Assembly: GCA_965215885.1 (NCBI GenBank) | Contig: CBDCEW010000101.1 | Span: 96,001 to 160,000 of the forward strand | Source: Candidatus Moanibacter sp. | GTDB taxonomy: Bacteria > Verrucomicrobiota > Verrucomicrobiia > Opitutales > UBA2987 | Reading direction: 5' to 3' | DNA: 64,000 bases | In this document: piece by piece, positions 6,550 to 59,192 of the stretch | Numbering within the stretch: position 1 is the stretch's first letter | How the letters are laid out: each line of letters starts with the position of its first letter | Translations under genes and position numbers: made by a program | Notes under the pieces: model-generated | What the model was told of the DNA's origin: nothing | Seen by the model: the letters and a program-made list of their open reading frames with translations, nothing else | Database searches by the model: none

Positions 6550-6830
6550 CTAGATCTTGATCGTAGTCATGATCGCGAACTAAAATCGGAAGAAGGGAAG
6601 ATCGACTGGAGATCACGATTGAGAGGCACGATGGGAGTGAGGAGAACACGTTAGATCTTCCCTTCGTGATCCTTGGAGCGCAGCGATCTTTATCGAACCA
6701 TCTATCCGAGAAATCACTCCTACCACTCTCTGATTCACTTTGATCGAGCGTCAACTTTGTATTTTGGCCTGTTTAGAGGACGATTACGAGGACGAGAACG
6801 ATTGGATCGCTGGGTCGCGCGAGAACGCAG
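6550..6830. repeat. 6-bp-periodic TCG/CGA palindromic repeat family (AGATCACGAT core)
   Basis: CTAAAATCGGAAGAAGGGAAGATCGACTGGAGATCACGAT resembles 22960-23130 and the reverse complement of 52280-52360. Confidence 0.65.
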
Positions 6831-7674: not shown

Positions 7675-7800
7675 GACAGTATCGCGGCACGAGCAGGTAC
7701 AACATATATCTGCCCCCTTTCTTAATCCCTAGGATGGACCTCTTGAGTTGAAGATTGGGAATTTCGGGTTTCGGGGGGATCGGGTTTCCCAGGTGACGTC

Positions 7801-8483
7801 TTTGTCGTAAGCTTCGTCGTAAACTTTGTCGAACCTCCCTAAGCCCGAGTGAAGCTCTTTCCAGCGGCCAAGGAAACACGTGGTGGCGAGTAGAATCGAC
7901 GAAGTTCACGACTAAGCTTACGATTAAGTTTGGGGAGGCTTTTAACCCGTGAGGGAATCTTCGTCGTAAACTTTGTCGAATCTCCCCTAAGCCGGAGTGA
8001 AGCTCTTTCCGGCGGCCCAGGAAACACGTGGTGGCGAGTAGAATCGACGAAGTTCACGACTAAGCTTACGACGAAGTTTTGGAGAAACTTTTCACCCGTG
8101 AGGGAACCTTTGTCGCGAGCTTTGTCGCCGTATTAGGTCCCACTCTCGATCAAGTTCACGACGAAGCTTACGATTAAGTTTTGGAAGGGCTCTTCTCCCC
8201 GTGAGGGATCCTTTGTCGCGAGCTTCGTCGTAAGCTTTGTCGCCGTATTCCGTCCTCTCTCGACCAAGCTTACGACGAAGTTTTGGAGGAGCTTTTCACC
8301 CCGTGAGGGAACCATAGTCGCGAGCTTCGTCGTCAACTTTGTCGAATCTCCCCTCAGCCGGAGTGAAACTCTTTCCGGCGCCAAAGGAGCAAGTAGGAGG
8401 CACGAAGAATCGTCCAAGCTCACGACTAAGCTTACGACAAAGTTTTGGGAAGCTTTTAACCCGTGAGGGAACCTCTGTCGCGA
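7801..8483. repeat. Array of about 5 hairpin units with 12-bp-periodic arms, separated by CCCGTGAGGGA
   Basis: Arms TCGTAAGCTTCGTCGTAAACTTTGTCG / CGACGAAGTTCACGACTAAGCTTACGA; CCCGTGAGGGA recurs near 7946, 8095, 8198, 8300 and 8460. Confidence 0.9.
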
Positions 8484-10075: not shown

Positions 10076-10396
10076 TAAGGGTAGATCGACCGATCCGCAC
10101 CATCAAGGAAGCGGCGATTCCCTGGATTTCTGCTCGAATCTCTCCCTCAGCTCGGCTCTCTCGGATAGATGCTGGGGCAGGATCTTGAGAGCGATTTCCT
10201 ATCAGTCTTGCCGTGCCCGCGAATCTTCCCGCAGATCGAGAAAGTTGGCTCTAATATCCAGGTAACCGAGATTAGTTAATTCGGATAATGCACTGATATC
10301 ACTGATCTGGTTGTTGCCGAGGTATAGCTCCATCAGGCTGGTGAGCCCGCTGAGGGCGCTGATATGGCTGATCTGGTTGGTGGCGAGCCTTAGCTT

Positions 10397-12313
10397 GACC
10401 TTATCCGAAAAGCTACTGATTGGCCGCAAAGAGGCGCAAAAGGCGCAAGAAAAACTTGAGAAAAATCATTTTTTGGCTTGATAAAAAGTGTCGCAACATG
10501 CTAGTGTTTAACAACCTAAGATTAAGAAAGGAGTTAAACATGCCAACATGTGCGACAGAGGAGAACAAAAGCGATAAGACGCCCCTTAGCAACCTCATTC
10601 TGCCGGTTCCAGACACGGATTTCCGTGATTTTCTGGATGAAGTTGAAGAATTGGCCGGGTTCGCGGCGCAAATCATCGAGGCGATCGAGAAGGATCTGGA
10701 CGCCCATGCGCGTGAGAAGAAGAAACTTCGATTGGAAGATCGCAGGTTCTTTGAAGGGCGCACAGCGGAGCTGCCGGAGCTGGACATCGAGGAGGAGAAT
10801 ATTCTGGCTGCTGAATTGAATCTTGGGGCAGGCCGGCCGCGGATGCCGGCTTATGCGGTATACGTGTTCGTGATGATTCGAGGGTTTCTGGGTTCGTTGA
10901 CCACGAAACCGGCACGGCGGTTTGTGCGCGAGTCGATGAGCTTGTACGGATTTTTGCAGAGCGGGGGACTGAGAATGCCGGCGGTGACGACGATTCTGGA
11001 GAACGTGAACCTGGTCAGCCATACGACCCGCGAGTTGATCTTTGATAAACAGATTGGGTTTATCCTCCAGGAGCAATGGGACGATTTCGGGAAGCTGACG
11101 ATCGACAGCACCTCGGTGAAAGCAAACAGCTGCTGGCCCACCGATGGGAAGATTCTGAGCGGTCTTTTGATGCGGGCCAATCGTTTGGGTCAGAAGTTGC
11201 ATGTCTTCGGGCTGGAGGATTTTCGCAAGGGATGGGTTGGGCGTTGGCTGGAGGAAATGGACAAGCTGGAGTTTCAGATTTGTCTGGCCGCGGGCAAACC
11301 GAAGTCGAAGGGCAAGCTGAAGAAACACTACCGGCGGTTGCTCAAGCGGGGCCGCAAGGCGGCCGACTCACTAACGGGGGAACTGAGCCATCTTGAAGAG
11401 GGCCTGTCGATGGATTCACTGCCTCCCACTCGCCGGGAGCTTCTGGAGCGGGCATTGAGCCAGATCAGGGGCGATATTGCCGACGCCAAGCGGGTTGTTG
11501 AGTATGCTCATGATCGGGTGTTTCACGAAAAGAAGCTACCGTCCACACAGAAGGTCCTGAGCCTCTCGGACGGATCGGCGGCCTACATCAAGAAGGGCAG
11601 CCGCAATCCAGTGATCGGGTACAAGCCACAACTGGTTCGCAGCGAAAACGGTTTTGTCACCAGCCTGATCGTACCGCAAGGCAACGCGGCAGACTCCATT
11701 GAGCTGGCGCCGGCCATCGGCGATTCGATCAAGCGCACCGGTGTCATTGCTGAACTGGTCAGCACCGATGACGGATATGCTTCGGCGAAGGGACGCAAGG
11801 AGGTGCTGAGCATGGGGGTAAAGCAGATCAGTATCAGTGGGGCGAAGGGCAAGAAGTTGACCACCCCCGAGGACTGGGAGAGCGAGGCGTATCGCGAGGC
11901 ACGCCGCGATCGCTCCGCAGTGGAGTCGCTGATGTTCACGATTAAAGATGGATTTGCCTTTGGCGAACTCGGCCGCCGCGGCATCGATGCGGTAGGCGAT
12001 GAACTGCTCGAGAAGGTTCTGGCCTACAACTTCTGCCGCATCATACTGATGAAGAAACGCCGAGGGGAGGAACTGGAACAGGCAGCCTGAATCTGACCGC
12101 TTTGAAGCTCAGAGAAAAAAGCACCACGGGATGAGTATGCCTCCAGACAGCGGCAAATATACGTATTGTGCAGCAAGCCACGCCGATGGCCGCTCAATAC
12201 CTGCTCATCGGCAGCGCCGGCAGCCTAAAACCCGAAACCTGCCAGCCATAGGCTGGTCCGCCCGTGGCGGAGAACCTTAAACCGCCCGCTCGAAAGGCTT
12301 TTCGAATGGGGTC
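10397..12313 (+). mobile_element. IS5-like/ISNCY insertion sequence, copy 2, 6-bp target duplication TAGCTT
   Basis: Same TIRs as copy 1; TAGCTT at 10391-10396 and 12314-12319. Confidence 0.95.
10540..12090 (+). CDS. DDE transposase (IS5-like/ISNCY)
   Basis: Same protein as 1065..2615 from MPTCAT onward. Confidence 0.85.
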   Translation: MPTCATEENKSDKTPLSNLILPVPDTDFRDFLDEVEELAGFAAQIIEAIEKDLDAHAREKKKLRLEDRRFFEGRTAELPELDIEEENILAAELNLGAGRPRMPAYAVYVFVMIRGFLGSLTTKPARRFVRESMSLYGFLQSGGLRMPAVTTILENVNLVSHTTRELIFDKQIGFILQEQWDDFGKLTIDSTSVKANSCWPTDGKILSGLLMRANRLGQKLHVFGLEDFRKGWVGRWLEEMDKLEFQICLAAGKPKSKGKLKKHYRRLLKRGRKAADSLTGELSHLEEGLSMDSLPPTRRELLERALSQIRGDIADAKRVVEYAHDRVFHEKKLPSTQKVLSLSDGSAAYIKKGSRNPVIGYKPQLVRSENGFVTSLIVPQGNAADSIELAPAIGDSIKRTGVIAELVSTDDGYASAKGRKEVLSMGVKQISISGAKGKKLTTPEDWESEAYREARRDRSAVESLMFTIKDGFAFGELGRRGIDAVGDELLEKVLAYNFCRIILMKKRRGEELEQAA

Positions 12314-13140
12314 TAGCTTAGTCAGGCTGGTGAGCCCGCTCAGGGCGCTGATATCGCTGATCCGATTGGTGGCGAGGTTAAGAAATGTCAGGCTGTTCAG
12401 CCCGCGGAGGGCGCTGATATCACTGATCCGGTTGTTGTAGAGGGATAACCTTCTCAGGATGGTGAGCCCGCTCAGGGCGCTGATATCACTGATCTGGTTG
12501 TTCCAGAGGTTTACCTCTAACAGGCTGGTGAGTCCGCTCAGGGCGCTGATATCGCTGATCGGATTGTTGTAGAGGGATACCCTTCTCAGGCTGGTGAACC
12601 CGCTCAAGGCGCTGATATCGCTGATCTGGTTGTTGTAGAGGTTAAGAAATCTCAGGCTGGTGAGCCCGCTAAGGGCGCTGATATCGCTGATCCGGTTGGT
12701 GGCGAGCCATAGCTCTGTGAGGCTGGTGAGCCCGCTCAAGGCGCTGATATCACTGATCTGGTTGTTGTAGAGGTTAAGAAATCTCAGGCTGGTGAGCCCG
12801 CTCAAGGCGCCGGTATCGCTTATCTCGTTGTTCCAGAGATTTAGCTCTAGCAGGCTGGTGAGCCCGCTCAGGGCACTGATATCACTGAGCTGGTTGTTGG
12901 AGAGGTTTAGCGAGGTCAGGTTCACGGCAGCCTCCAGGCCGGTCAGGTCGGCGATGCCACTTAGGTGGGCCGAAAGGCTGGTTAGCGATTCCATGTCAGT
13001 GGCGGTTATATCGCCGGTGGGTTTTCCCAAAGCGTCTCGGATGGCCGACTCTAGACCGCTGTCCGGGATAGGCGTCTGCGCGTTGGCGATGTGCCCGAAA
13101 GGGGCGAAGACTGCCATGAATGCAATTGTTATGCGCCGAA

Positions 13141-13347
13141 TTACCATAATGCTTCTTTTGGAGAAATTGCCTTAAGCTCTTTTTTCAGGGTTTTGATTTG
13201 AATCCTTAATTCGTCCTTCTTGATTGGCGGAGCGGCTTTAAGATCCCGTTTCAAAGACTTCAATTCTAGCTTCTTATTCTTGATCTTTTCTTGAACTTCC
13301 GGCGACGCATGGTGTCGCATGGCTCCATCTGGTAGGAATTTTGTCAT
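13141..13347 (-). CDS. Small Lys-rich coiled-coil hypothetical protein
   Basis: 68-aa ORF whose stop overlaps the LRR gene start; no family recognised. Confidence 0.35.
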   Translation of the reverse strand: MTKFLPDGAMRHHASPEVQEKIKNKKLELKSLKRDLKAAPPIKKDELRIQIKTLKKELKAISPKEALW

Positions 13348-14828: not shown

Positions 14829-15240
14829 GTTTTGCATTTCTGAGGCTGCCCCGGGCTTGCACGCCTCGGCGAAGACGGGTGCCCGGGTGGGGCACGCTAA
14901 ACAGATACAAAGATTACGACGGAGTTTGGGAAGGAACCCTGCCCTTTAGCGGAGTCCTACAAGACTCATCGACAAGGTTCGCGCCAGGGTTTCGCGACGA
15001 GGTTTGAACAAAGGTGATTCGAGCTCCTCCTCTGAGTTTTCTCTTCCCTTTAGGCCGGAATACCCGAAAGGGAAACCTCGTCGCGAACCTTGTCGAATCC
15101 CTTTCGATTTTAGATCACGATTACGGATCGAATGGATATCCACCTGAATGTCTTCTCTGCCGTACGGCAGAGTAGTCGATTGTCGATTTCTGTTTCTCGA
15201 TTTTAGATTGCGATTATGAGGCGTTCGACGTTTTCGCGAA
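14829..15240. repeat. Cluster of repeat modules: GTTT..ACGCTAAAC MITE-like unit, 12-bp-periodic arms, 6-bp-periodic arms
   Basis: 14829-14902 resembles 45688-45785 and 24966-25015; TCGACAAGGTTCGCG / CGCGAACCTTGTCGA inverted pair; TTTAGATCACGATTACG. Confidence 0.65.
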
Positions 15241-22496: not shown

Positions 22497-22653
22497 CTTT
22501 TCCCCTTCTCCGTTGTTCTTATCAAACGTTTAGTATTGTATCCGGCGTATCGGCGAAGCGGGATGCCGGAAACAATCTGTTAGCGATCATGTTTCGACAA
22601 GCTTGTATTCTTTTTTCACTTCACGCTTTTGACTAGGAATCATGTGATGCGAA

Positions 22654-22822
22654 TCATGGTATGATCCAGGATTCCGGGATATCCAGTCCGAAGCCGGGAG
22701 CATCGCTGGGTGTCAGCCGGCCATTTTTTGGAATGGGTGTTCCCGGTAGGCGGGGAAGCTCTTCGAGCGGGACTCCGGGCTCTGAGCCCACGAAATATTC
22801 TGCCCACGGTAGGGACGGCGTA
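22654..22822 (-). pseudogene. Orphan 3' fragment of an enolase-family dehydratase (paralog of the 37924..39090 C-terminus)
   Basis: IATPSLPWAEYFVGSEPGVPLEELPRLPGTP..SDAPGFGLDIP closely matches IATPAVPWAEYFVGSAPGVPIEELPRLPGTP..SDAPGFGLEIP. Confidence 0.85.
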
Positions 22823-22944
22823 GCGATCGTTCTCCTCCTCGAAGTCTTGGCTAAAACTTGGCAGGAACCCACCCCTAACCCCTCCTGGGAGGGGAACGCT
22901 GATCAGATAACGGTGTAGGGATGGTATTAGTAATATTGATCTCT

Positions 22945-23145
22945 CCGTCGTAATCATAATCGTAATCTAAATTCGAAAGAAGAAAGCTCGACGGGAGATC
23001 ACGATTTAGAGTCACGATGGGAAGAGGGGAGCCGATTGGATCTTTCGTCGTGAATCGTAATCGTGATCTAAAATCGAAAGAGGACAAGATCGACTTGAGA
23101 TCACGATTTAGAGTCACGACGGAAGAGGAGGGTCGCAATACGAGG
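22945..23145. repeat. 6-bp-periodic hairpin repeat doublet
   Basis: GAGATCACGATTTAGAGTCACGA occurs twice; inverted arms TCGTAATC..CTAAA. Confidence 0.75.
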
Positions 23146-24965: not shown

Positions 24966-25215
24966 GTTTAGCGTGATTTGAAGCTGCCCCGGTCTTGCGC
25001 CGGGGACCAGCTAACAGAATGACGTAAGTCGTCGACAAGGTTCGGGAGTGAGGTTCGCGACCCGTCGTCGCTCTGCTTTGCCGAGGCATGCAAGGTTACC
25101 CAAGGGAAGTAGGAGTTTCCTTCTGCATTCGCGTCCATCTGCGTACATCTGCGGTTCTCTTCTTCTCTTTTTTTGGTTGCGGCTACGCTGCGCCAGGTCA
25201 TCCGTGGTTGGAATT
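24966..25215. repeat. Composite repeat cluster
   Basis: About 100 bp (25100-25197) is an inverted copy of 39634-39728; CGACAAGGTTCG..CCGTCGTCGCT is shared with 56509-56570. Confidence 0.7.
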
Positions 25216-26848: not shown

Positions 26849-26978
26849 GAAGCACAGAGGACCACGGAGGTTGAAAATGGTTCTGTGGAGAAGAGGAATA
26901 AACAGAAGGCAACAGAGAGAAACGGCGACGGGGAGACGCAACGAAAACAGAGTGGGGGAAGCGGTGAAGCGACCGGAC

Positions 26979-27064
26979 CTTTGTCGTAAGCTTCGTCGTC
27001 AACTTTGTCGCTAGCTTTGTCGCGGAATTCGGTCACTTTCTTGAGGAAGCTTTCGATGAAGTTT
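26979..27064. repeat. 12-bp-periodic repeat tract
   Basis: CTTTGTCGTAAGCTTCGTCGTCAACTTTGTCGCTAGCTTTGTCG. Confidence 0.75.
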
Positions 27065-30449: not shown

Positions 30450-33041
30450 ATGACCGGTAACCTTCACAACAGCTGGCCGGTTCTGAAGTCCTACGATCAG
30501 GAGCATCTTGATCGCATTGCGATGCCGATCGGAGGGATCGGAACCGGGACGATAAGCCTGGGCGGGCGGGGCGACTTGCGTGACTGGGAGATCATGAACC
30601 GTCCGGCGAAGGGATTTATTCCGTGTTGGCCGTTGAGTCACGGGAACCGGGCGCGGATTGGGCCTTTCTTCGCCCTCTATGCGAAGCCAAGCACCGGCGA
30701 TGCGGTTGCACGGTTGCTCGAAGGCCCGTTGCCGATTGAGGCCTACGAGGGCCAGATGGGCGCGACAGGTCCCAACCACGGCCTGCCGCGGTTTCGGAAT
30801 TGCCGGTTTTCGGCGGCCTATCCTCTCGCCCAGGTATCCCTGGACGATCCGGCTGTTCCCCTTGTTGCGAGGATGGAAGCGTTTAATCCGATGGTCCCGG
30901 GCGATGCCGAGGCGAGTGGTTTACCGGTCGCGGTCCTCCGTATTGTCCTGACCAACAAGACGAAGCTTCCGGTTCAGACCTCAGTTTGCGGATCGCTCCC
31001 GAACTTTATCGGTTTTGAGTCTGGTAGTGAGATGGAAGAAGCTCCGGGAAAGGAGCGCCGCGTACGTTTTCGTGTCGGTAAATCGGTCCGTGGTCTTTTC
31101 TACGATGCCCCGGGTGTGGAGGGCAGAAGAGAATCCTTGGGCACGATGGCGTTGGCGACGACGGCACGAATCGGCATTTCGCACCGCACTTCTTGGATCG
31201 AAGCGCACTGGAGCCGGGCATCACTTGATTTTTGGGATGATTTCAGCACTGACGGCAAACTCGAGCCACGTAAGGGGTCCGGCCAGACGGAGCCGATGGG
31301 ATCTCTCGGGGTCTCTCTCCGCGTGCCACCGGGAGCGGCGCGTGCCGTGACGTTTTTGATCACCTGGCATTTTCCCAATCGATTCGCGTGGGCGCCGCAG
31401 ACCGAGAAACCCTGCTGCGGCGATTCGGGCTCCCGAGGCCGCGGCACGGTTGAAGAGGCCGGGGAGGGAAACTGGTATTGCACCCGCTACAAGGACGCCT
31501 GGAACGCCGCGGCTGAGATCGCACCCCGTTTGCCGCAGCTGGAACGGGCCACGGTAGCGTTTGTGAAAGCCTTTTGTAGCTCTGATTTGCCTGAACCGGT
31601 GAAAGAGGCCGCCCTTTTCAACACTTCGACGCTCCGCACGGAGACCTGCTTTCGCACACGTGAAGGACATTTCCTGGCGTGGGAAGGTTGCCGGGACGAA
31701 GAGGGTTGCTGCCATGGCTCTTGCACGCACGTTTGGAATTATGAGCACGCGACGGCGCATCTATTCGGCGACTTGAGCCGGTCCATGCGCGAAACCGAGT
31801 TTCTGCACGCTACTGACGAAGAGGGCAAGATGGCTTTCCGGGTCGACTTGCCTCTGCCGGAGCGCCAGACCGAAGGGCCCGCCGCGGCGGATGGACAGAT
31901 GGGCTGTTTGCTCAAACTCTACCGGGACTGGCAACTGTCCGGGGACGACGAATTTCTGCGCGCCCTCTGGCCGCATGCGCGCCGGGCGCTCGAGTTCTGC
32001 TGGGTCAAAGGGGGATGGGATGCCGATCGCGACGGCGTCATGGAAGGCTGCCAGCACAACACCATGGACGTGGAGTACTTCGGGCCGAATCCGCAGATGA
32101 CGGGATGGTACCTGGGCGCTTTGCGGGCGGCTGAGGAAATGGCCTGCTTCCTCGGCGAAGACGCGTTCGCCGACACCTGCCGATCTCTCTTTGAACGCGG
32201 AAGCGAGTGGATGGATGAGTATCTCTTCAACGGTGACTACTACGAGCACCAGGTGCGGGTGCTGCGGCGATGGAGCGACGTCCACCCCGCACTGCGGCTG
32301 AATATGGGTTCGAGTAAGCTGAAGAATCCCGATCTTCAACTCGGCCCGGGTTGCCTCGTCGATCAGCTGGTGGGACAATACACCGCACACCTTTGCGGCC
32401 TCGGCTACCTGCACGAAAAAGCAAAGGTGAGGAAAACCCTTCGCAGCGTTCTGCGCTTCAACCGGTGCACGAATTTTGGCTCACATTTTAACAACATGCG
32501 CAGCTACGTGCTCGGCGTTGAGACGGGGTTGCTGATGGCGGCTTATCCCCCAGGGAAACGTCCCAGGTTTCCGTTTCCCTACTTTTCCGAGGTGATGACC
32601 GGGTTCGAATATACCGCAGCGGTCGGCATGATCTACGAAGGACTGAAGGGGCTCGGACTCAAGGTGATCGGAGACATCAGGGACCGCTATGACGGGAGAA
32701 AACGCAATCCGTTCGACGAGGCGGAGTGCGGTCACCACTACGGCCGGGCCATGGCTTCGTGGTCGGCTGTCCTCGCATTTACCGGTTTCCACTACAGCGC
32801 CGTTCAGGGAACGATGACCTTCGCGCCATCGGAGAAACCTGTCACCTGGTTCTGGTCGAACGGGTACGCCTGGGGAACCTTCTCCCAAGAAAAGAAGCGC
32901 GGGGGCGTCGCCGTGGAATTACTGGTGCTTTACGGAAGGCTGGAACTGGCGAGATTAGCGCTCACCGGCATCGGTCAGATCGAATTTCCGAGGCGCCGGG
33001 TATTCCGCAAAGGACGAGGCTTGAAATGTGTCATTTCGTGA
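30450..33041 (+). CDS. Glycoside hydrolase family 116 (non-lysosomal glucosylceramidase-like)
   Basis: MPIGGIGTG, GSCTHVWNY, AADGQMG, QHNTMDVE, EVMTGFEY, NPFDEAECGHHY.RAM. Confidence 0.9.
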   Translation: MTGNLHNSWPVLKSYDQEHLDRIAMPIGGIGTGTISLGGRGDLRDWEIMNRPAKGFIPCWPLSHGNRARIGPFFALYAKPSTGDAVARLLEGPLPIEAYEGQMGATGPNHGLPRFRNCRFSAAYPLAQVSLDDPAVPLVARMEAFNPMVPGDAEASGLPVAVLRIVLTNKTKLPVQTSVCGSLPNFIGFESGSEMEEAPGKERRVRFRVGKSVRGLFYDAPGVEGRRESLGTMALATTARIGISHRTSWIEAHWSRASLDFWDDFSTDGKLEPRKGSGQTEPMGSLGVSLRVPPGAARAVTFLITWHFPNRFAWAPQTEKPCCGDSGSRGRGTVEEAGEGNWYCTRYKDAWNAAAEIAPRLPQLERATVAFVKAFCSSDLPEPVKEAALFNTSTLRTETCFRTREGHFLAWEGCRDEEGCCHGSCTHVWNYEHATAHLFGDLSRSMRETEFLHATDEEGKMAFRVDLPLPERQTEGPAAADGQMGCLLKLYRDWQLSGDDEFLRALWPHARRALEFCWVKGGWDADRDGVMEGCQHNTMDVEYFGPNPQMTGWYLGALRAAEEMACFLGEDAFADTCRSLFERGSEWMDEYLFNGDYYEHQVRVLRRWSDVHPALRLNMGSSKLKNPDLQLGPGCLVDQLVGQYTAHLCGLGYLHEKAKVRKTLRSVLRFNRCTNFGSHFNNMRSYVLGVETGLLMAAYPPGKRPRFPFPYFSEVMTGFEYTAAVGMIYEGLKGLGLKVIGDIRDRYDGRKRNPFDEAECGHHYGRAMASWSAVLAFTGFHYSAVQGTMTFAPSEKPVTWFWSNGYAWGTFSQEKKRGGVAVELLVLYGRLELARLALTGIGQIEFPRRRVFRKGRGLKCVIS

Positions 33042-33198
33042 TGGCGCAGCAGGGTGCGCGACTGATGTAAAATTTTGGTGTCCATGCGGGTTTATGAGCC
33101 ATATGTAGGACAAGCGTCCCGCTTGTCTGTGTTTTCGGGGCAAGGGAAAGACCTATATAGCCTCGAGTCTCCTCTCCCCTGCGGGGTGATATATTCTC

Positions 33199-33380
33199 TC
33201 GAAACTTGATCGTAAGCTTCGTCGTAAGCTTACTCGAAAGATCAACCTGAAACGTCGACGGACTTGACCCTCCCTGCCGAAACTTAATCGTAAGCCTCGT
33301 CGTAAGCTTTGTCGAGAGATCGGGCGAAAACATCGACGAAGTTGACGATTAAGCTTGCGAGGAAATTTCCCTGGGGGGAG
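33199..33380. repeat. 12-bp-periodic hairpin repeats, left flank of the four-helix-bundle gene
   Basis: AAACTTAATCGTAAGCCTCGTCGTAAGCTTTGTCG ... CGACGAAGTTGACGATTAAGCTTGCGA. Confidence 0.85.
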
Positions 33381-33433
33381 GAACCTCCTTCTGCTCGCCA
33401 TCGCCCAATACTCCGTCCTAATCTTCCCGACCA

Positions 33434-34198
33434 GTGAGCGCTACCTTCAATCACGAGAAACTGCTTGTCTATCAGAAGACGTTGGCATTCTATGGAATAG
33501 CAGACACTTTGGTGCAAGATTGGGATTCCAAACGTGCAATCACCGATCATCTCCCAAGAGCAGCACAGAGCAGCGTTGAAAACCTTGCAAACGCGAGTTC
33601 TGCAATCTCTAAGGGATCGAAGTTAAAATCGCTCGACTACAGCTTGGGGTCTACACTCGAGTGCGCAGCCTGTCTCGACATCGCCGAAGTAAAGCGACTT
33701 CTCAACGGAGAAATTGTGGCGCAATACAAAGCGAATCTCGCAGAAATTGTCAGAATGACGATGGGCCTTCAAGATTCCTGGTCCCAACACATACTACGAG
33801 AAGATGGAGTCACGTATGGCGGGGATACAACCTCACGACCGCAGCGGTCGGGGTTTCACCACGAGGAACTCGACGTCTACATAGTTGCTCTTGAAGTGAT
33901 TCGATGGTTCTGCGAATCGGAGTTATCGGCGGGACTCTCGGTCCGCTTATTGCGCAAATTGGATGCGTTCGCCACCAGCATCGTGCTGAATATAGCGGAA
34001 GGTAACGGTCGTTACTCAGAAAGGGATAAGCGAAGTTTTCTCCAGACTGCTCACCAGTCAACGGTCAAACTGGCGACTCAGCTGGATCTTTGTATCCTAA
34101 AGGGGCTGCTATGTTCAAAGGATGCCGACGTCGGAAAGAACCTGATTGTCAGAGTTGCGAGTATGACCGCAGCCATGATCAGGAGTAAACGAACCTAA
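33434..34198 (+). CDS. Tandem four-helix-bundle protein (23S-IVS/Avd-like fold, two domains)
   Basis: FNHEKLLVYQ..RAAQSSVENLA..GSTLECAACLD and FHHEELDVY..SIVLNIAEGNGR; linker LREDGVTYG. Confidence 0.85.
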   Translation: MSATFNHEKLLVYQKTLAFYGIADTLVQDWDSKRAITDHLPRAAQSSVENLANASSAISKGSKLKSLDYSLGSTLECAACLDIAEVKRLLNGEIVAQYKANLAEIVRMTMGLQDSWSQHILREDGVTYGGDTTSRPQRSGFHHEELDVYIVALEVIRWFCESELSAGLSVRLLRKLDAFATSIVLNIAEGNGRYSERDKRSFLQTAHQSTVKLATQLDLCILKGLLCSKDADVGKNLIVRVASMTAAMIRSKRT

Positions 34199-34220
34199 TA
34201 GAGAATTGACGGAAAACCGC

Positions 34221-34424
34221 GTCGAAGCTTACGACGAAGGTGCCCTGACGGGGGTAGTAGGGCTCCCTATCAAAACTTAATCGTAAGCTGCGTCGTAAGC
34301 TTAGTCGAAGACCCAGCCGGAAACATCGATGAAGTTGACGATCAAGCTTACGACGAAGATGCCCAGCCGGGCGGAAGAGGATCCTCCAAACCTAATCGTA
34401 ATCTTCGTCGCAAGCTTAGTCGAA
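34221..34424. repeat. 12-bp-periodic hairpin repeats, right flank of the four-helix-bundle gene
   Basis: AAACTTAATCGTAAGCTGCGTCGTAAGCTTAGTCG ... CGATGAAGTTGACGATCAAGCTTACGACGAAG. Confidence 0.85.
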
Positions 34425-34518: not shown

Positions 34519-35358
34519 ATGAACCGATTATCACCGGAAGAAATCACCTTTTTTAAACGCGAGGGCTACCTGATCAAAAAGGGTGTTCTTGACCCGGATC
34601 TGATGGCGCGAGCCCGGGAACGAAAATGGGTGGGCGCACCTGATCGCATGAAGCGGGATGATCCCTCCACCTGGTTTGGGCCGTGGAGCACCGAGGAAGA
34701 AACCAGCGAAGCGGAGGCTGACTGTAAGCTGGGATACACTTGGAAATATCGCGAACCGGCTGAGGAGGAATGGCTTGTCCGCATGATGGCGGCAAATCCC
34801 GTAATTGTCGGCTGGGTCGAGCAGCTCCTCGGTGAGGGGACTTTCGACGTGAAGGAACGTGTTCGCGGCATCTATTGCCGTCTACCGATGGGAGATGCAC
34901 CGGAAAAGCCTCTCGTCTGCCACTGCGATGTTGGACCCGACCGACTGCACGAGACGCTGTTCACGCAACTCCTAAACCCCGGCGTCGGCGCCGTGGGACT
35001 GATCGCGCCCATCCCACCGAACGGAGGAGCTTTCACCGTCTGGCCGGGAACGCACAGGATAATCTATGACCTCATGATAAACACGGAAGGCCTTGCACGG
35101 AACGAGGCCTATAAGCAAAGGATTATCGACTTTAACGACGATTATCACGTGGAGGGCTGCGGCGAAGCGGGCGACGTTCTATTATGGCATCGCCTTCTGG
35201 CCCACGCCGCCGGGTGGAACCGATCCGAGGTACTGCAGTTGCGCGAAGCTGTTCTCTGTGATTACCCGCACCGTGAGAATCCCGACGCGGAAGCGAAGTC
35301 CTCTTACGAAGACATGTGGGAGGCATGGTCGGGGGAGGTGCGGAGGGCTGCTGTTTGA
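34519..35358 (+). CDS. PhyH-family dioxygenase
   Basis: FFKREGYLI, HCD (HxD), GAFTVWPGTH, AGDVLLWHRLLAH. Confidence 0.85.
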   Translation: MNRLSPEEITFFKREGYLIKKGVLDPDLMARARERKWVGAPDRMKRDDPSTWFGPWSTEEETSEAEADCKLGYTWKYREPAEEEWLVRMMAANPVIVGWVEQLLGEGTFDVKERVRGIYCRLPMGDAPEKPLVCHCDVGPDRLHETLFTQLLNPGVGAVGLIAPIPPNGGAFTVWPGTHRIIYDLMINTEGLARNEAYKQRIIDFNDDYHVEGCGEAGDVLLWHRLLAHAAGWNRSEVLQLREAVLCDYPHRENPDAEAKSSYEDMWEAWSGEVRRAAV

Positions 35359-37927: not shown

Positions 37928-39090
37928 TCGAAAAACGGTTCGATCCACTCCTTCGGGATCTCCAGACCGAACCCCGGGGCATCGCTGGGGCTGACGCGGC
38001 CGTTTTTCGGAAAGGGCGTTCCCGGAAGGCGCGGCAGCTCCTCGATGGGAACGCCCGGCGCAGAGCCGACGAAATATTCCGCCCACGGCACGGCCGGTGT
38101 GGCGATGGAGAAATGCTGGCCGTAGGGATCTTTTGCGCCCGTGTGAAGGATCACTGAAAGCCCTGCGGCGTCCGCGATATGTGCGATCTTGCGAGCCGTC
38201 GAGATACCGCCACACCAATGGAGATCGGGTTGGAATATGTCTACAGCCCGATGATTCGCGGCCCATTGAAAGGGGACATGGGTGTACCAGTGCTCGCCGG
38301 TGGCGAGGGTCTGCCATGGCAGGCGCTCCCGTAGAGCCACGTGGGCGTCCAGATCTTCGGAAATGAGACACTCCTCCATCCACTTGAGCCGGTAGGGCCG
38401 CAGTGTCTCCGCCAGCCGCACCGTGTACTCCACGTCGAACGCCATCCAGCAATCGAGCATCAGTTCGCAATCGTCGCCGATCGTCTCACGGGCTTTGGCG
38501 ACAAGCTCTTCGTTCCGGCGGATGCCGTCGATTCCGTCCACCGGGCCGCAGGGGCAGGCCAGTTTGAAGGCCTTAAATCCCAATTCCTTGTACCAGTCGA
38601 AATCGTTACCCGTCGCGTAGCAAAAGAGATCATCTTTCTGCTTGCCACCGAGGAGCGTGTAGACCGGTTGCTGCAAGACTCTTGCGCGCGCGTCCCACAG
38701 CGCGAGGTCAACCGCGCTGATCGCGTTGGAGGCCAACCCCGGGGTGCCGTAGGGCTTGGTGAGCCGGAACATCATGTCGGCCAAACGCTCGGTGGCGAGT
38801 CCGTCTTCGCCGACCAATTGCGGAGCCAGATGATCCTCGATGATTGCCGCCGTGACGCGCCCGCCCCCGGTGCTGCCGAGACCCCAAGTGCCGTCCTCAA
38901 GGGTCACCCGGCACCAGACCCCCTCCCATTTTCTTGGCATCCAGAGTCCGCGGTGTCGCTTGACTTTCGGGTAGCGGGACATCGGGTTGGCCACTTCGGC
39001 GGTTTCGGCCCAACCGGATCGCCGGGCCGGAGTCTTCGGTTCAGAGTGCGGAGCGTTTACGCGCACGGTGCTGATTTCGGTGATTCTCAT
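37924..39090 (-). CDS. Mandelate racemase/enolase-family sugar-acid dehydratase (L-rhamnonate dehydratase-like)
   Basis: VANPMSRYP, AISAVDLALWD, LMLDCWM, WMEE, TGEH, QPD..WCGG. Confidence 0.88.
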   Translation of the reverse strand: MRITEISTVRVNAPHSEPKTPARRSGWAETAEVANPMSRYPKVKRHRGLWMPRKWEGVWCRVTLEDGTWGLGSTGGGRVTAAIIEDHLAPQLVGEDGLATERLADMMFRLTKPYGTPGLASNAISAVDLALWDARARVLQQPVYTLLGGKQKDDLFCYATGNDFDWYKELGFKAFKLACPCGPVDGIDGIRRNEELVAKARETIGDDCELMLDCWMAFDVEYTVRLAETLRPYRLKWMEECLISEDLDAHVALRERLPWQTLATGEHWYTHVPFQWAANHRAVDIFQPDLHWCGGISTARKIAHIADAAGLSVILHTGAKDPYGQHFSIATPAVPWAEYFVGSAPGVPIEELPRLPGTPFPKNGRVSPSDAPGFGLEIPKEWIEPFFE

Positions 39091-39609: not shown

Positions 39610-39850
39610 ATGGTCACAAAGGACACTGAGAAGCCTGGCGCAGCGAAGCCGCAACCAAAAAAGAAGAAGAGAACCGCAGATGCACGCAGATGGACGCGAA
39701 TGAGGAAGAAAACTCCTACTTCCCTTGGAAACCTCGTCGCGAACCTTGTCGACTGCATTTCCTTTTCGTTTTCCTTTGTTTCTATCGACGCGCGGGATTC
39801 AACTCTCCGTGGTCCTCTGTGCTTCTCGGTGATCTCTGTGGCCCCTCTTC
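39610..39850. repeat. Composite of 9-bp-periodic and 12-bp-periodic repeat modules
   Basis: AACCGCAGATGCACGCAGATGGACGCG (inverse of 25128-25155); CTCCGTGGTCCTCTGTGCTTCTC (inverse of 26848-26870); AACCTCGTCGCGAACCTTGTCGA. Confidence 0.75.
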
Positions 39851-50022: not shown

Positions 50023-50901
50023 ATGCCCGGCTCATCACAAACTGCTTCCAGCACTTCCTCTTCTCCGAAACCGTTAACCGCAGAGGAGCTGGGGTTTTTC
50101 AAGCGTGAGGGCTACCTCATCAAACGTGGGGTTCTTGACCCCGACCTGATGGAGCGGGCTCGGGAGCGTAAATGGAAGAGTGCTCCGCCTCGCATGAAGC
50201 GGAATGATCCTAACACCTGGTTCGGCCCCTTTCGAGAGGACGAGGAAATCGAGGACGGGCCGAACCGGCGCTCAGGGTACACCTGGAAATACTGTGAACC
50301 GGGAGCGGAGGAATGGATCATCGGGATGCTTGCGACCGATGCCACGATATGGGGCTGGGTCGAGCAGCTGCTGGGTGAAGGAGAGGTGAAGCAACCGGAG
50401 AAAATTCGTGGCATCTACTGCCGGTTGCCGATGGGCGACGCGCCGGAGGAACCAACCATTTGCCACTGTGATGTCACGCCTGATAATTTGGATATGGACC
50501 TTAGGGAAACCGCCCTGCAGCCCGGAATGGGTCTGGTCGGGTTGATCGCCCCGATTCCCCCGAACGGCGGATCCTTTACCGTGTGGCCGGGCACCCATCG
50601 GATTATTTACGACCTGCTCGCAACTACTGAAGGTCAGGAGCGCATCGATTCCTATAAGGCGCGAATTATAAAGTTTAACGATGATCGCCGCGTAGAGGGC
50701 TGCGGTGAGGCGGGCGACATTCTTTTCTGGCATCGGCTCCTTGCGCATACGGCCGGTTGGAACCGATCCGAGAAGATCCAACTCCGCGAAGCCGTTCTCT
50801 GCGACTACAATAAAGTGCCAAACGAAGAGTTGGCGGCACAACGCCCCCATGATGACATGTGGCGCGAATGGTCGGAGGAGTTGCGCAATCCACGGATGTA
50901 A
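50023..50901 (+). CDS. PhyH-family dioxygenase (close paralog of 34519..35358)
   Basis: FFKREGYLIKRGVLDPDLM, HCD, FTVWPGTH, AGDILFWHRLLAH. Confidence 0.85.
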   Translation: MPGSSQTASSTSSSPKPLTAEELGFFKREGYLIKRGVLDPDLMERARERKWKSAPPRMKRNDPNTWFGPFREDEEIEDGPNRRSGYTWKYCEPGAEEWIIGMLATDATIWGWVEQLLGEGEVKQPEKIRGIYCRLPMGDAPEEPTICHCDVTPDNLDMDLRETALQPGMGLVGLIAPIPPNGGSFTVWPGTHRIIYDLLATTEGQERIDSYKARIIKFNDDRRVEGCGEAGDILFWHRLLAHTAGWNRSEKIQLREAVLCDYNKVPNEELAAQRPHDDMWREWSEELRNPRM

Positions 50902-52270: not shown

Positions 52271-52371
52271 AGGGACGCGGGAGTCAGTCGATCTTCTCTT
52301 CTTTCGAATCTCAATTACGATTACGAAGGGAAGATTGAACCGGTTCCCCACTCCCATCGCTTATTAGCAAC

Positions 52372-55551: not shown

Positions 55552-55638
55552 CGCTCAGCGGGACCGCGATCGAACTTTCCTGTTTCGAATTTAGATCACG
55601 ATAAAGATCCACGACTGAGATATTGATCGGCTGTCTCG

Positions 55639-56466: not shown

Positions 56467-56601
56467 ACTTCAACTTCGACTGCAGTTTGAATTGATGTTC
56501 TACACAATGTCGACAAGGTTCGCGAGTGAGGTTCGCGACCCGTCGTCGCTCCGCTTTGCCGAGGCAGGCAAGACGACCTATGATCTGCCAAACAGAAAAG
56601 A

Positions 56602-59070: not shown

Positions 59071-59192
59071 AACTTACCTATTTTGCTCGTAGTCGCGTTC
59101 TTGTGTCGATCTCTCCTGTTTCGAATTTAGATCACGGCCTGCCATAAGCAGGCCAACCTGAAGCTCGAACCCCGTCTTACTCAGTTCCCAGA

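Follow-up and report, generated by a model that had tools for sequence, protein, structure and literature searches.

A two-domain four-helix-bundle gene bracketed by inverted arms of alternating hexamers in Candidatus Moanibacter sp., and the doubling of repeat period with domain number

A 64,000-nt stretch of the Candidatus Moanibacter sp. genome (C101:96001-160000, hereafter the window) was analyzed around a plus-strand gene at 33434-34198, which starts with GTG and encodes a 254-aa protein with two four-helix-bundle domains (FNHEKLLVY and FHHEELDVY are both present in the translation). The genome (G000) comprises 6.36 Mb in 105 contigs and is 90% complete. The gene is bracketed by arms of two alternating hexamers, and the comparison of homologous loci showed that the period of such flanking repeats doubles, from 6 to 12 bases, with the number of domains in the protein. 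Seven arms of ~30 nt, one half arm and four CCC-n-GGG mini-stems flank the gene. The arm consists of five hexamers in the order A-B-A-B-A, where A is GAYNAR (GACGAA-like) and B is G(C/T)TTAC (GCTTAC-like) or GTTGAC; all arms are written here on their purine strand, and those at 34221 and 34277, as well as the half arm, were read from the sequence by eye.

On the left side, the element starts at about 33170, because a mini-stem (CCCC-TGC-GGGG, 33176-33186), a degenerate copy of the conserved spacer between outward-facing arms, precedes position 33199. There follow arm L1 (33206-33235, minus strand, GAGTAA GCTTAC GACGAA GCTTAC GATCAA), the degenerate half arm (33257-33268, plus), L2 (33284-33313, minus, GACAAA GCTTAC GACGAG GCTTAC GATTAA), L3 (33335-33364, plus, GACGAA GTTGAC GATTAA GCTTGC GAGGAA) and, on the plus strand at 33365-33433, a mini-stem (~33367-33384) with the 5' leader, common to paralogous copies on contigs C56 and C96 (84-86% by blastn over 33380-33472 and 33405-33643). 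On the right side lie the three-unit arm R1 (34221-34238, plus, GTCGAA GCTTAC GACGAA), a conserved spacer (34243-34271) whose mini-stem CCC-TGAC-GGG (34243-34252) was seen in sequence and folding, R2 (34277-34306, minus, GACTAA GCTTAC GACGCA GCTTAC GATTAA), R3 (34328-34357, plus, GATGAA GTTGAC GATCAA GCTTAC GACGAA), a second such spacer (34362-34385; mini-stem CCC-AGCC-GGG, 34362-34371) and R4 (34392-34421, minus, GACTAA GCTTGC GACGAA GATTAC GATTAG); R1 and R2 were also matched by the arm matrix described below. The left stretch 33270-33383 and the right stretch 34263-34376 are 78-80% identical. A preliminary description of this DNA had reported hairpins of a palindromic 12-bp unit on both sides, with short CCC-n-GGG stems beside them; the flanking arms and the stems were found, and the unit turned out to be two different hexamers rather than a palindrome. 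The flanks gave folding z-scores of -2.2 (left) and -3.8 (right), with local predicted folds. With L3 and R1, the arms closest to the gene, facing the same way, the locus is not a plain hairpin that has the gene as its loop.

Profile searches of the 254-aa protein returned PF05635 (two stretches, 87.1 bits against a cut-off of 33.8) and TIGR02436 (two stretches, 81.2 against 24) only; the product is a member of this family, which has the S23p/Avd fold. No match to the HUH, GIY-YIG, DDE or PD-(D/E)xK families was obtained in these searches, in keeping with the preliminary remark that no nuclease or transposase motif was evident, and structure comparison likewise revealed no GIY-YIG domain. The first domain (D1) spans about residues 5-119 and the second (D2) about 139-253, joined by a linker (120-138). 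An AlphaFold2 model (pLDDT 92) shows eight long helices in two four-helix bundles with a loose linker. Its best structure matches (VIA-align) were 2GSC (Z 18.9, rmsd 1.2 Å, 111 residues aligned), 2RLD (16.4) and Avd (14.7 and 14.2), while Foldseek gave no match at E<=0.001. The gene is under purifying selection, with ratios of nonsynonymous to synonymous substitution of 0.18 against its closest titled homolog (locus L015) and 0.34 against two paralog fragments. Near-identical contigs from one RNA run span parts of the gene (33677-33861 and 33985-34211), as contigs that carry no strand, ends or level. A promoter/terminator scan was at chance level (2 vs 1.3; 2 vs 2.1), and an Rfam scan found nothing close to the gathering score.

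The repeat period was compared among 193 loci of the family, 22 of which were dropped because their flanks were shorter than 120 nt. The best period at two-domain loci (n = 75, including the one described here) was 12 in 52, 13-14 in 14 and 6 in two, whereas in the single-domain sister clade (n = 67), found through a search at shorter length and a metagenome scan, it was 6 in 59 and 12 in six. Identity at lag 12 exceeded that at lag 6 by more than 0.1 at 47/75 two-domain loci and at none of the 67 sister loci. The result held after proteins more than 80% identical were collapsed (period 12 in 41/59 two-domain, period 6 in 48/56 single-domain). Generic single-domain genes (n = 29) had period 7 in 19 cases and 14 in five. 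Inverted matches across the gene were present at 62/75 two-domain loci, against 1/62 control flanks, and at 50/67 sister loci, against 3/40; homologs thus keep their flanking repeats. Word A resembles the word of the single-domain loci (GATTAA, GATTAC, GAGCAA), and word B varies by clade (GCTCGC, GTTTAC, GTGTGG, GATCGG, GAGCGC, GGTAAA). The most frequent arm length was five hexamers both in singles (40/134 flanks, with six hexamers in 28) and in doubles (54/150), for which the pattern admits odd counts only. Such a length would correspond to about one oligomer, 2GSC being a homopentamer according to the accessible text of PMC4990558. Since the repeat unit doubled where the protein domain doubled, each domain likely reads one 6-base word. 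Eight two-domain loci (L054, L056, L057, L075, L082, L084-L086) form a subclade with periods of 13-14 bases and extra bases in word B, which suggests that looped-out spacer bases are tolerated.

Copies of the arm are dispersed through the genome. A matrix derived from 276 pattern matches detected 487 arms in 247 clusters, against four matches in the reversed genome, and a pattern scan gave 344 matches, against none in a Markov-4 simulation. Gene positions were taken from our own hexamer script (5073 genes, 76% coding), which is not an annotation. Nearly all clusters (241/247) lie outside predicted open reading frames (ORFs) and six lie inside; 133 are between co-directional genes, 68 between convergent and 34 between divergent ones, and six are at contig ends. 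Adjacent arms are inverted in 194/240 pairs and separated by a conserved spacer of 22-25 nt that carries the mini-stem, similar to bacterial interspersed mosaic elements (BIMEs); a single arm was detected in 142/247 clusters. This bears out the proposed layout of one cognate gene with dispersed gene-less copies, as in systems of repetitive extragenic palindromes (REP) and their associated tyrosine transposases (RAYT). Within the window, a gene-less, BIME-like array occupies 7796-8446, its ten arms in strict alternation and its spacers conserved, and a gene-less copy with one seven-unit arm and a short opposite arm lies at 26975-27060, both by matrix and sequence and close to where they had been placed before (7801-8483 and 26979-27064).

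The arms are associated with one clade of the family. An arm occurs within 65 nt at all five cognate-clade loci (C101, C72, C96, C56 and C104:66 kb), of which C72 and C96 are halves of one gene and the C104:66 kb remnant bears a variant arm; at the other four-helix-bundle loci of the genome no arm was found within 1.4 kb (0/8), and other repeats are there instead. For comparison, 284/5073 predicted genes have a cluster within 300 nt. The enrichment that the preliminary description had called for was therefore observed. The variant arms (variant B, GACAAGGTTCGC type), cognate to a different paralog clade, also flank a different, broken paralog (C104:66.2 kb) and locus L107. In the window they form a pair at 14969-15096 and occur at 39728-39752 and 56510-56534 by matrix match; the earlier listing of variants at 14968-15098, 39728 and 56509 thereby stands, and the copy listed at 25030 (~25030-25060) falls under the matrix threshold and is visibly of the same variant. 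An element of ~100 nt at 25100-25197 and 39634-39728 (93% identical, inverted), holding GCAGATG-like short repeats, abuts variant-B arms and is possibly a different repeat family fused to them. Arms of a further family (GATCAC/GATTAC/GATTTAGAG) with conserved loops were matched by pattern at 6567-6637, 15101-15225, 22953-23125, 52286-52355, 55570-55618 and 59086-59136. A census pattern for pure hexamer arrays was uninformative (10 vs 16 in the control), as was the first GACTAAGTG pattern (184 vs 195).

Paralogs of the gene were observed in several states. The segments C96:56553-56792 and C72:9082-9645 (84-85% nucleotide identity to the gene at 33434-34198) are halves of one copy split by an element with a 471-aa DDE_Tnp_1_4 transposase, with CTAG on both sides of the break, where the assembly is also broken. 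An internal deletion in C56:4071-4492 (minus strand) fuses the start of D1 to D2 at the look-alike HEKL/HEEL-VY motifs, leaving a one-domain remnant without a clear start, still amid 12-base arms. A second intact two-domain paralog (C104:27994-28740, 38% identity) has its own GACTAAGTGT-type arms with a period of 12-14, of which about 11 clusters exist in the genome (23 matches vs 0 in the control). The single-domain paralogs at C90:29879, C5:11748, C94:27977, C80:2019, C70:19414, C103:182876 and C97:86587 each have their own short repeat (7-mers or TGAC-based units), and three of them apparently lie, by eye, between ABC-transporter permease genes.

The distribution among relatives was examined in 41 genomes (G000, a second carrier termed G006, seven others of the family and 32 of the order), which include kin that are not independent and several small genomes among the negatives. 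A close two-domain gene was present in G000 and G006 only (ortholog 79% identical), and the repeat pattern was counted 267 times in G000, 177 in G006, never in the other family genomes and 0-2 times in the order-level ones (1-2 in two of them). Locus L015 is labeled as Candidatus Moanabacter sp., a verrucomicrobium, and most of the other 78 loci carry the names Verrucomicrobia, Kiritimatiellae or Lentisphaerae. In a cross test of three clade-specific patterns over 22 genomes, the GATCGG type was found in 8/8 genomes with its clade against 3/14 others and the GTGTG type in 7/7 against 4/15; together with the comparison of words, this supports the prediction that repeat type follows protein clade. 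As to mobility, three gene copies of ~85% identity lie at unrelated sites in G000, and the G006 ortholog lies next after a gene for which the counterpart in G000 lacks arms up to 600 nt away, a single, half-informative empty site. A joint of 33259 to 34225, seen in all four DNA runs, was considered as an empty site and rejected, since 13 other letters lie between its repeat-only sides; it is best read as a gene-less copy. In G006, an array at L238:5570-6060 consists of same-strand A-B-A-B-A arms placed head-to-tail at 79-nt spacing with two alternating conserved spacers; it is CRISPR-like in look and adjoins a Mutator-family transposase.

The sequence motifs of the family are divided between the two domains. 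Single-domain relatives bear both NIAEGNG and GSALECAACLD; in the fusion, D2 retains the former (N186, A188 and N191 invariant) and D1 the latter (G72, E76 and C77 invariant). A three-copy model scored 0.57, against 0.00 for the best of three controls, with runs agreeing on at least 91% of contacts and a pLDDT of 81; the score mark was reached by 20/30 solved homo-pairs and 1/23 single chains in a calibration made on two-copy cases only. The pass may stem from likeness to solved pentamers. In the model, residues 207-249 of D2 contact residues 4-58 of D1 of the next chain, so that helices 3-4 of D2 are predicted to pack on helices 1-2 of D1, and two confident interfaces of this kind give an open chain of six domains. 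Because of this joining, the two diverged motifs would meet between chains; the two ancestral ones (NIAEGNG of D2 and GSxLECAACLD of D1) would meet within a chain. With three molecules, the predicted chain would offer crevices in the order A-B-A-B-A, three of them within chains and two between chains, which is the order of the arm; six domains on six G-anchored triplets would fit the arms too.

A possible contact between residue and base was sought at the GNG column (S55 in D1, N191 in D2), with usable units at 41/75 two-domain and 62/67 single-domain loci. Where D1 has Asn at column 55, adenine occupies position 2 of word B in 85/85 units (13 loci), against 16/111 units (28 loci) where it has another residue; in singles, Asn went with A in 633/647 units and Thr with T in 47/61. 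Asparagine commonly reads adenine, and these associations are suggestive of a contact of residue 55/191 with base 2. Mutual-information scans of unit positions 3-6 were dominated by clade markers and gave no convincing residue.

The reading that we favor, with moderate confidence, is that of a sequence-specific repeat-reading oligomer in a selfish gene-plus-repeat system, the arms of which are spread or preserved through host enzymes. Recognition of the repeats by the protein is well supported indirectly, and sequence-specific binding of the arms is probable. Each domain junction would bind one 6-base word, and about three molecules would form a head-to-tail chain on a likely single-stranded arm, the within-chain crevice with its ancestral motifs reading the ancestral-like word A (GAYNAR) and the between-chain crevice, in which both motifs have diverged, reading the diverged word B. 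If there is binding, the substrate is probably single-stranded; the periods of 6, 7, 12, 13 and 14 would fit a single-stranded wrap better than reading from a duplex groove. DNA has a slight edge over RNA as the main substrate. Binding would maintain or spread the gene-plus-arms cassette and ~250 gene-less copies, host enzymes helping, as Avd serves a reverse transcriptase; that the protein spreads the repeats, as had been proposed, may be so, and the chances that it is needed for their spread or upkeep seem marginally better than even.

Several observations weigh against this reading. Neither a catalytic motif nor a partner enzyme was identified for the 254-aa protein, and its domains are about neutral (12 basic and 13 acidic residues in D1, 16 and 13 in D2), in contrast to the Avd barrel, which is strongly basic. 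The D1 and D2 sequences fall on the two sides of one branch in the tree, so one event may account for both the fusion and the period doubling. Among 66 arms of five units from other doubles, no match to B was seen in the hexamer that precedes the first A, and the hexamer that follows the last A is conserved at its first three bases (0.98, 0.65, 0.64) and decays beyond them; this sixth, half-conserved unit (G-x-x) may point to either five crevices or six domains per arm. The Asn/adenine match in doubles amounts to one tree change and one independent pair, to which singles add one small group; column 55 ranks second of the columns scanned, other clade markers scoring as high; base 2 is restricted by the patterns themselves for A and single units; and, Asn notwithstanding, 11/284 A units have G as their second base. 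Specificity was lacking for the GCTCGC-type pattern, which occurred in 7/7 genomes with its clade and in 11/15 picked for other clades. Variant-B arms form at least 37 clusters and have only a pseudogene as partner in this genome, and for the GATCAC/GATT family (179 matches vs 0 in the control) no partner gene was found in the 90% of the genome that is available; repeats can thus survive the loss of an intact gene or do without one. No empty junction of the two neighboring genes appeared among contigs of four DNA runs. Finally, the first arm after a stop codon has its pyrimidine strand in the mRNA in 74/115 cases, a mild transcription-linked bias on account of which RNA is a possible substrate.

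That bias enters into an unlikely alternative, in which the protein is an RNA regulator similar to TRAP (trp RNA-binding attenuation protein): the oligomer would wrap the purine-rich arm in transcripts, open or block an arm-arm hairpin at ~250 intergenic sites, whereby it would control stability, termination or translation there, and autoregulate its own gene, the repeats being a regulon and not selfish DNA. The 11-subunit TRAP ring reads 9-11 NAG repeats on single-stranded RNA, one per subunit, as described in the available part of PMC1474065, and Avd binds RNA. Whichever strand is transcribed, an inverted pair supplies the transcript with one purine arm; clusters are enriched at convergent gaps (68/235 vs 623/3215) and depleted at divergent ones (34 vs 745; chi-square p 4e-5), and both neighbors are co-directional at 35/54 two-domain loci. 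Pairing of the arms, however, left no trace of selection. Sense-strand G-U and A-C mismatches between arms were equally frequent in 58 doubles (165/165), with counts of 53/63 and 26/43 in other sets and 185/165 in gene-less pairs, and partner arms were no more complementary than shuffled ones (29.8 vs 35.5; 31.6 vs 32.3). Hairpin pairing as a selected RNA feature was consequently rejected, and the hairpins of the preliminary description are secondary; with no pairing signal, the arms appear to be degenerate arrays for binding, placed in inverted orientation, and not RNA stems under selection, and symmetric DNA cruciforms are possible. Against regulation, moreover, bracket polarity differs by clade (39 doubles with the purine strand upstream, 19 with the pyrimidine strand), either strand can carry the single arms found between co-directional genes (41 vs 31), and the gene is patchy, mobile and often broken, unlike a host regulator. 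A replication-strand bias, estimated from the local GC skew (73 vs 45 for single arms, p 0.013; 143 vs 124 for multi-arm clusters, p 0.27), is confounded with gene direction and was not used.

The same lack of a pairing signature bears on a self-hiding insert like an intervening sequence (IVS), which we consider improbable: the arms would form a long RNA stem, RNase III would cut the gene out of a polycistronic mRNA, and the protein would be a passenger or RNA chaperone. The protein family is shared, and the accessible text on the Coxiella IVS describes inverted repeats at the ends, heptamers (GACAGAT) in tandem upstream of S23p and excision by RNase III (PMC4990558); inverted arms across the gene are the rule at two-domain loci, and the flanks fold well. 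Yet the nearest arms at 33434-34198 are not complementary and the folds are local, more than half of the clusters are single-armed, a stem function needs no match between period and domains, and no gene-skipping joint was detected in four RNA runs, available as contigs at low cover.

Hitch-hiking without recognition has a similarly small probability. Arms like those of miniature inverted-repeat transposable elements or REP would be spread by another enzyme (a transposase of an insertion sequence (IS), a RAYT-like protein, or a GIY-YIG or PD-(D/E)xK nuclease), the gene having been captured once and having co-diverged by linkage and tandem slippage. IS and other repeat families abound in the genome, repeats are retained even when their cognate gene is broken or was not found, and, the fusion being one event, the period and clade matches could be co-inherited. 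On the other hand, of 29 positions of Y1 transposases or reverse transcriptases, each measured from one end of the match, none is closer than 500 nt to an arm cluster; no other family recurs, by size and position, among the 17 predicted, unannotated genes with clusters on both sides; the eight other four-helix-bundle loci each have a different repeat, or none of this type; and linkage alone predicts neither the exact doubling, nor the split of motifs and words into ancestral and diverged, nor the five to six units per arm. It is most improbable that the protein is an unrecognized enzyme for cutting or transferring strands, its active site formed by the conserved crevice (E76, E189, N186, N191, R42), and mobilizes the arms directly as RAYT or Ssn do, since its best structure matches are non-catalytic or uncharacterized, it matches none of the catalytic families named above and Avd lies ~40 Å from the reverse transcriptase active site (available text of 10.1101/2023.10.23.563531), even if the layout is identical to NTS-ssnA-NTS (PMC11893778) and REP-RAYT (PMC3116915) as their accessible parts present them, invariant polar residues cluster in the motifs of the within-chain crevice and no partner enzyme was found.

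The gene lies between a GH116 glycosidase gene (30450-33041, plus) and a PhyH-family dioxygenase gene (34519-35358, plus), both profile matches given for context; its GC content at third codon positions is 0.54, against 0.70 and 0.64 in these neighbors. In eight family genomes GH116 had no match at E<=1e-50 and PhyH had distant paralogs only. Paralogous PhyH genes were seen in the window at 34549-35265 and 50095-50808, with at least nine close copies in the genome and arm clusters between several of them (C94:80-83.6 kb), and enolase-superfamily paralogs at 22650-22827 and 37929-38106. Near-identical inverted copies at 841-2764 and 10391-12314 represent a 1.9-kb DDE_Tnp_1 insertion sequence, the second just before the 3' end of an internalin-like leucine-rich-repeat gene (12194-13147, minus; 66-bp tandem repeat, LRR_4 in ten stretches), the last residues of which run into the IS-end sequence. 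Certain 12-mers reach ~135 copies, which suggests that the genome holds an element of very high copy number.

TIGR02436/S23p is very common, with a match over the cut-off in 185/251 genomes of the class, and has no assigned function. The doubling from 6 to 12 bases is the most direct comparative argument for unit-by-unit reading of the flanking repeats, and it names a candidate substrate (the 30-33 nt A-B-A-B-A arm), a stoichiometry (about three chains) and a one-residue specificity point. If the binding is true, it would explain a whole class of anonymous intergenic repeats in Planctomycetes-Verrucomicrobia-Chlamydiae bacteria, tie them to Avd and rRNA intervening sequences, and offer a small modular scaffold for recognizing single-stranded repeats. 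A wider generalization is speculative: PF05635/TIGR02436 proteins might be a modular class of single-strand readers, programmable by evolution, in which every domain junction takes one short word and a single residue sets a single base; they would sustain a selfish gene-plus-repeat system free of nucleases across bacteria. The two-domain clade would then be a natural experiment, a homo-repeat reader turned by gene duplication into one that alternates between A and B, with Avd and the proteins of the rRNA IVS as domesticated offshoots of the system. The preliminary description had called the system undescribed; in the searchable literature, whose coverage leaves out most subscription journals, no paper ties the family to flanking repeats or reports period doubling, PMC8700078 has no bearing on the matter, and the tracking of domain number by the period is new here.

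With respect to known systems, the locus is not an rRNA IVS, a diversity-generating retroelement (DGR), a RAYT or an Ssn system, although its layout resembles that of RAYT and Ssn. TRAP of Bacillus has an unrelated beta-sheet fold and is a functional analogy only. According to the accessible part of PMC1474065, its oligomer wraps one triplet, a short single-stranded repeat, per subunit. TRAP differs in its few regulated operons and its lack of mobility. S23p and the rRNA IVS (Xcc0516, 2GSC; BT_0352, 2RLD; Coxiella) share the fold, a gene between inverted sequences and short tandem repeats beside it, and the available text of the Coxiella report mentions tandem heptamers before S23p and describes no binding (PMC4990558); here, in contrast, there are two fused, subfunctionalized domains, a 12-base A/B period, hundreds of gene-less copies and no trace of selected RNA pairing, and the locus lies between protein-coding genes, not inside a 23S or 16S rRNA gene, with no enclosing stem under pairing selection. 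Avd (4DWL, 8UB7) has the same fold at 10-11% identity and, in the accessible text, takes up flipped-out RNA bases in the crevices that separate its protomers (10.1101/2023.10.23.563531), the mode of reading that we infer for the 254-aa protein. Unlike in a DGR, no reverse transcriptase, template or variable repeat is nearby (the two reverse transcriptase genes of the genome, on C92 and C37, are 13 and 20 kb from the nearest arm cluster), and the target would be a periodic repeat rather than structured DGR RNA. RAYT/REP/REPIN/BIME systems have in common, as far as the available part of PMC3116915 goes, a cognate gene flanked by repeats, many extragenic copies in the form of inverted pairs and of alternating arrays whose spacers are conserved, and a repeat type that matches the protein clade; the present locus has no HUH transposase (no Y1_Tnp gene of the genome adjoins an arm cluster), tandem hexamer words instead of short tagged palindromes, and a gene found at several sites and often broken. 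Ssn with NTS/SRM, in the accessible text of PMC11893778, likewise combines a small gene flanked by its own repeat, hundreds of copies, co-evolving specificity and a proposed single-stranded recognition; the protein described here bears no GIY-YIG or known nuclease motif, and its multi-unit arms would be read by an oligomer, where Ssn reads a hairpin as a monomer.

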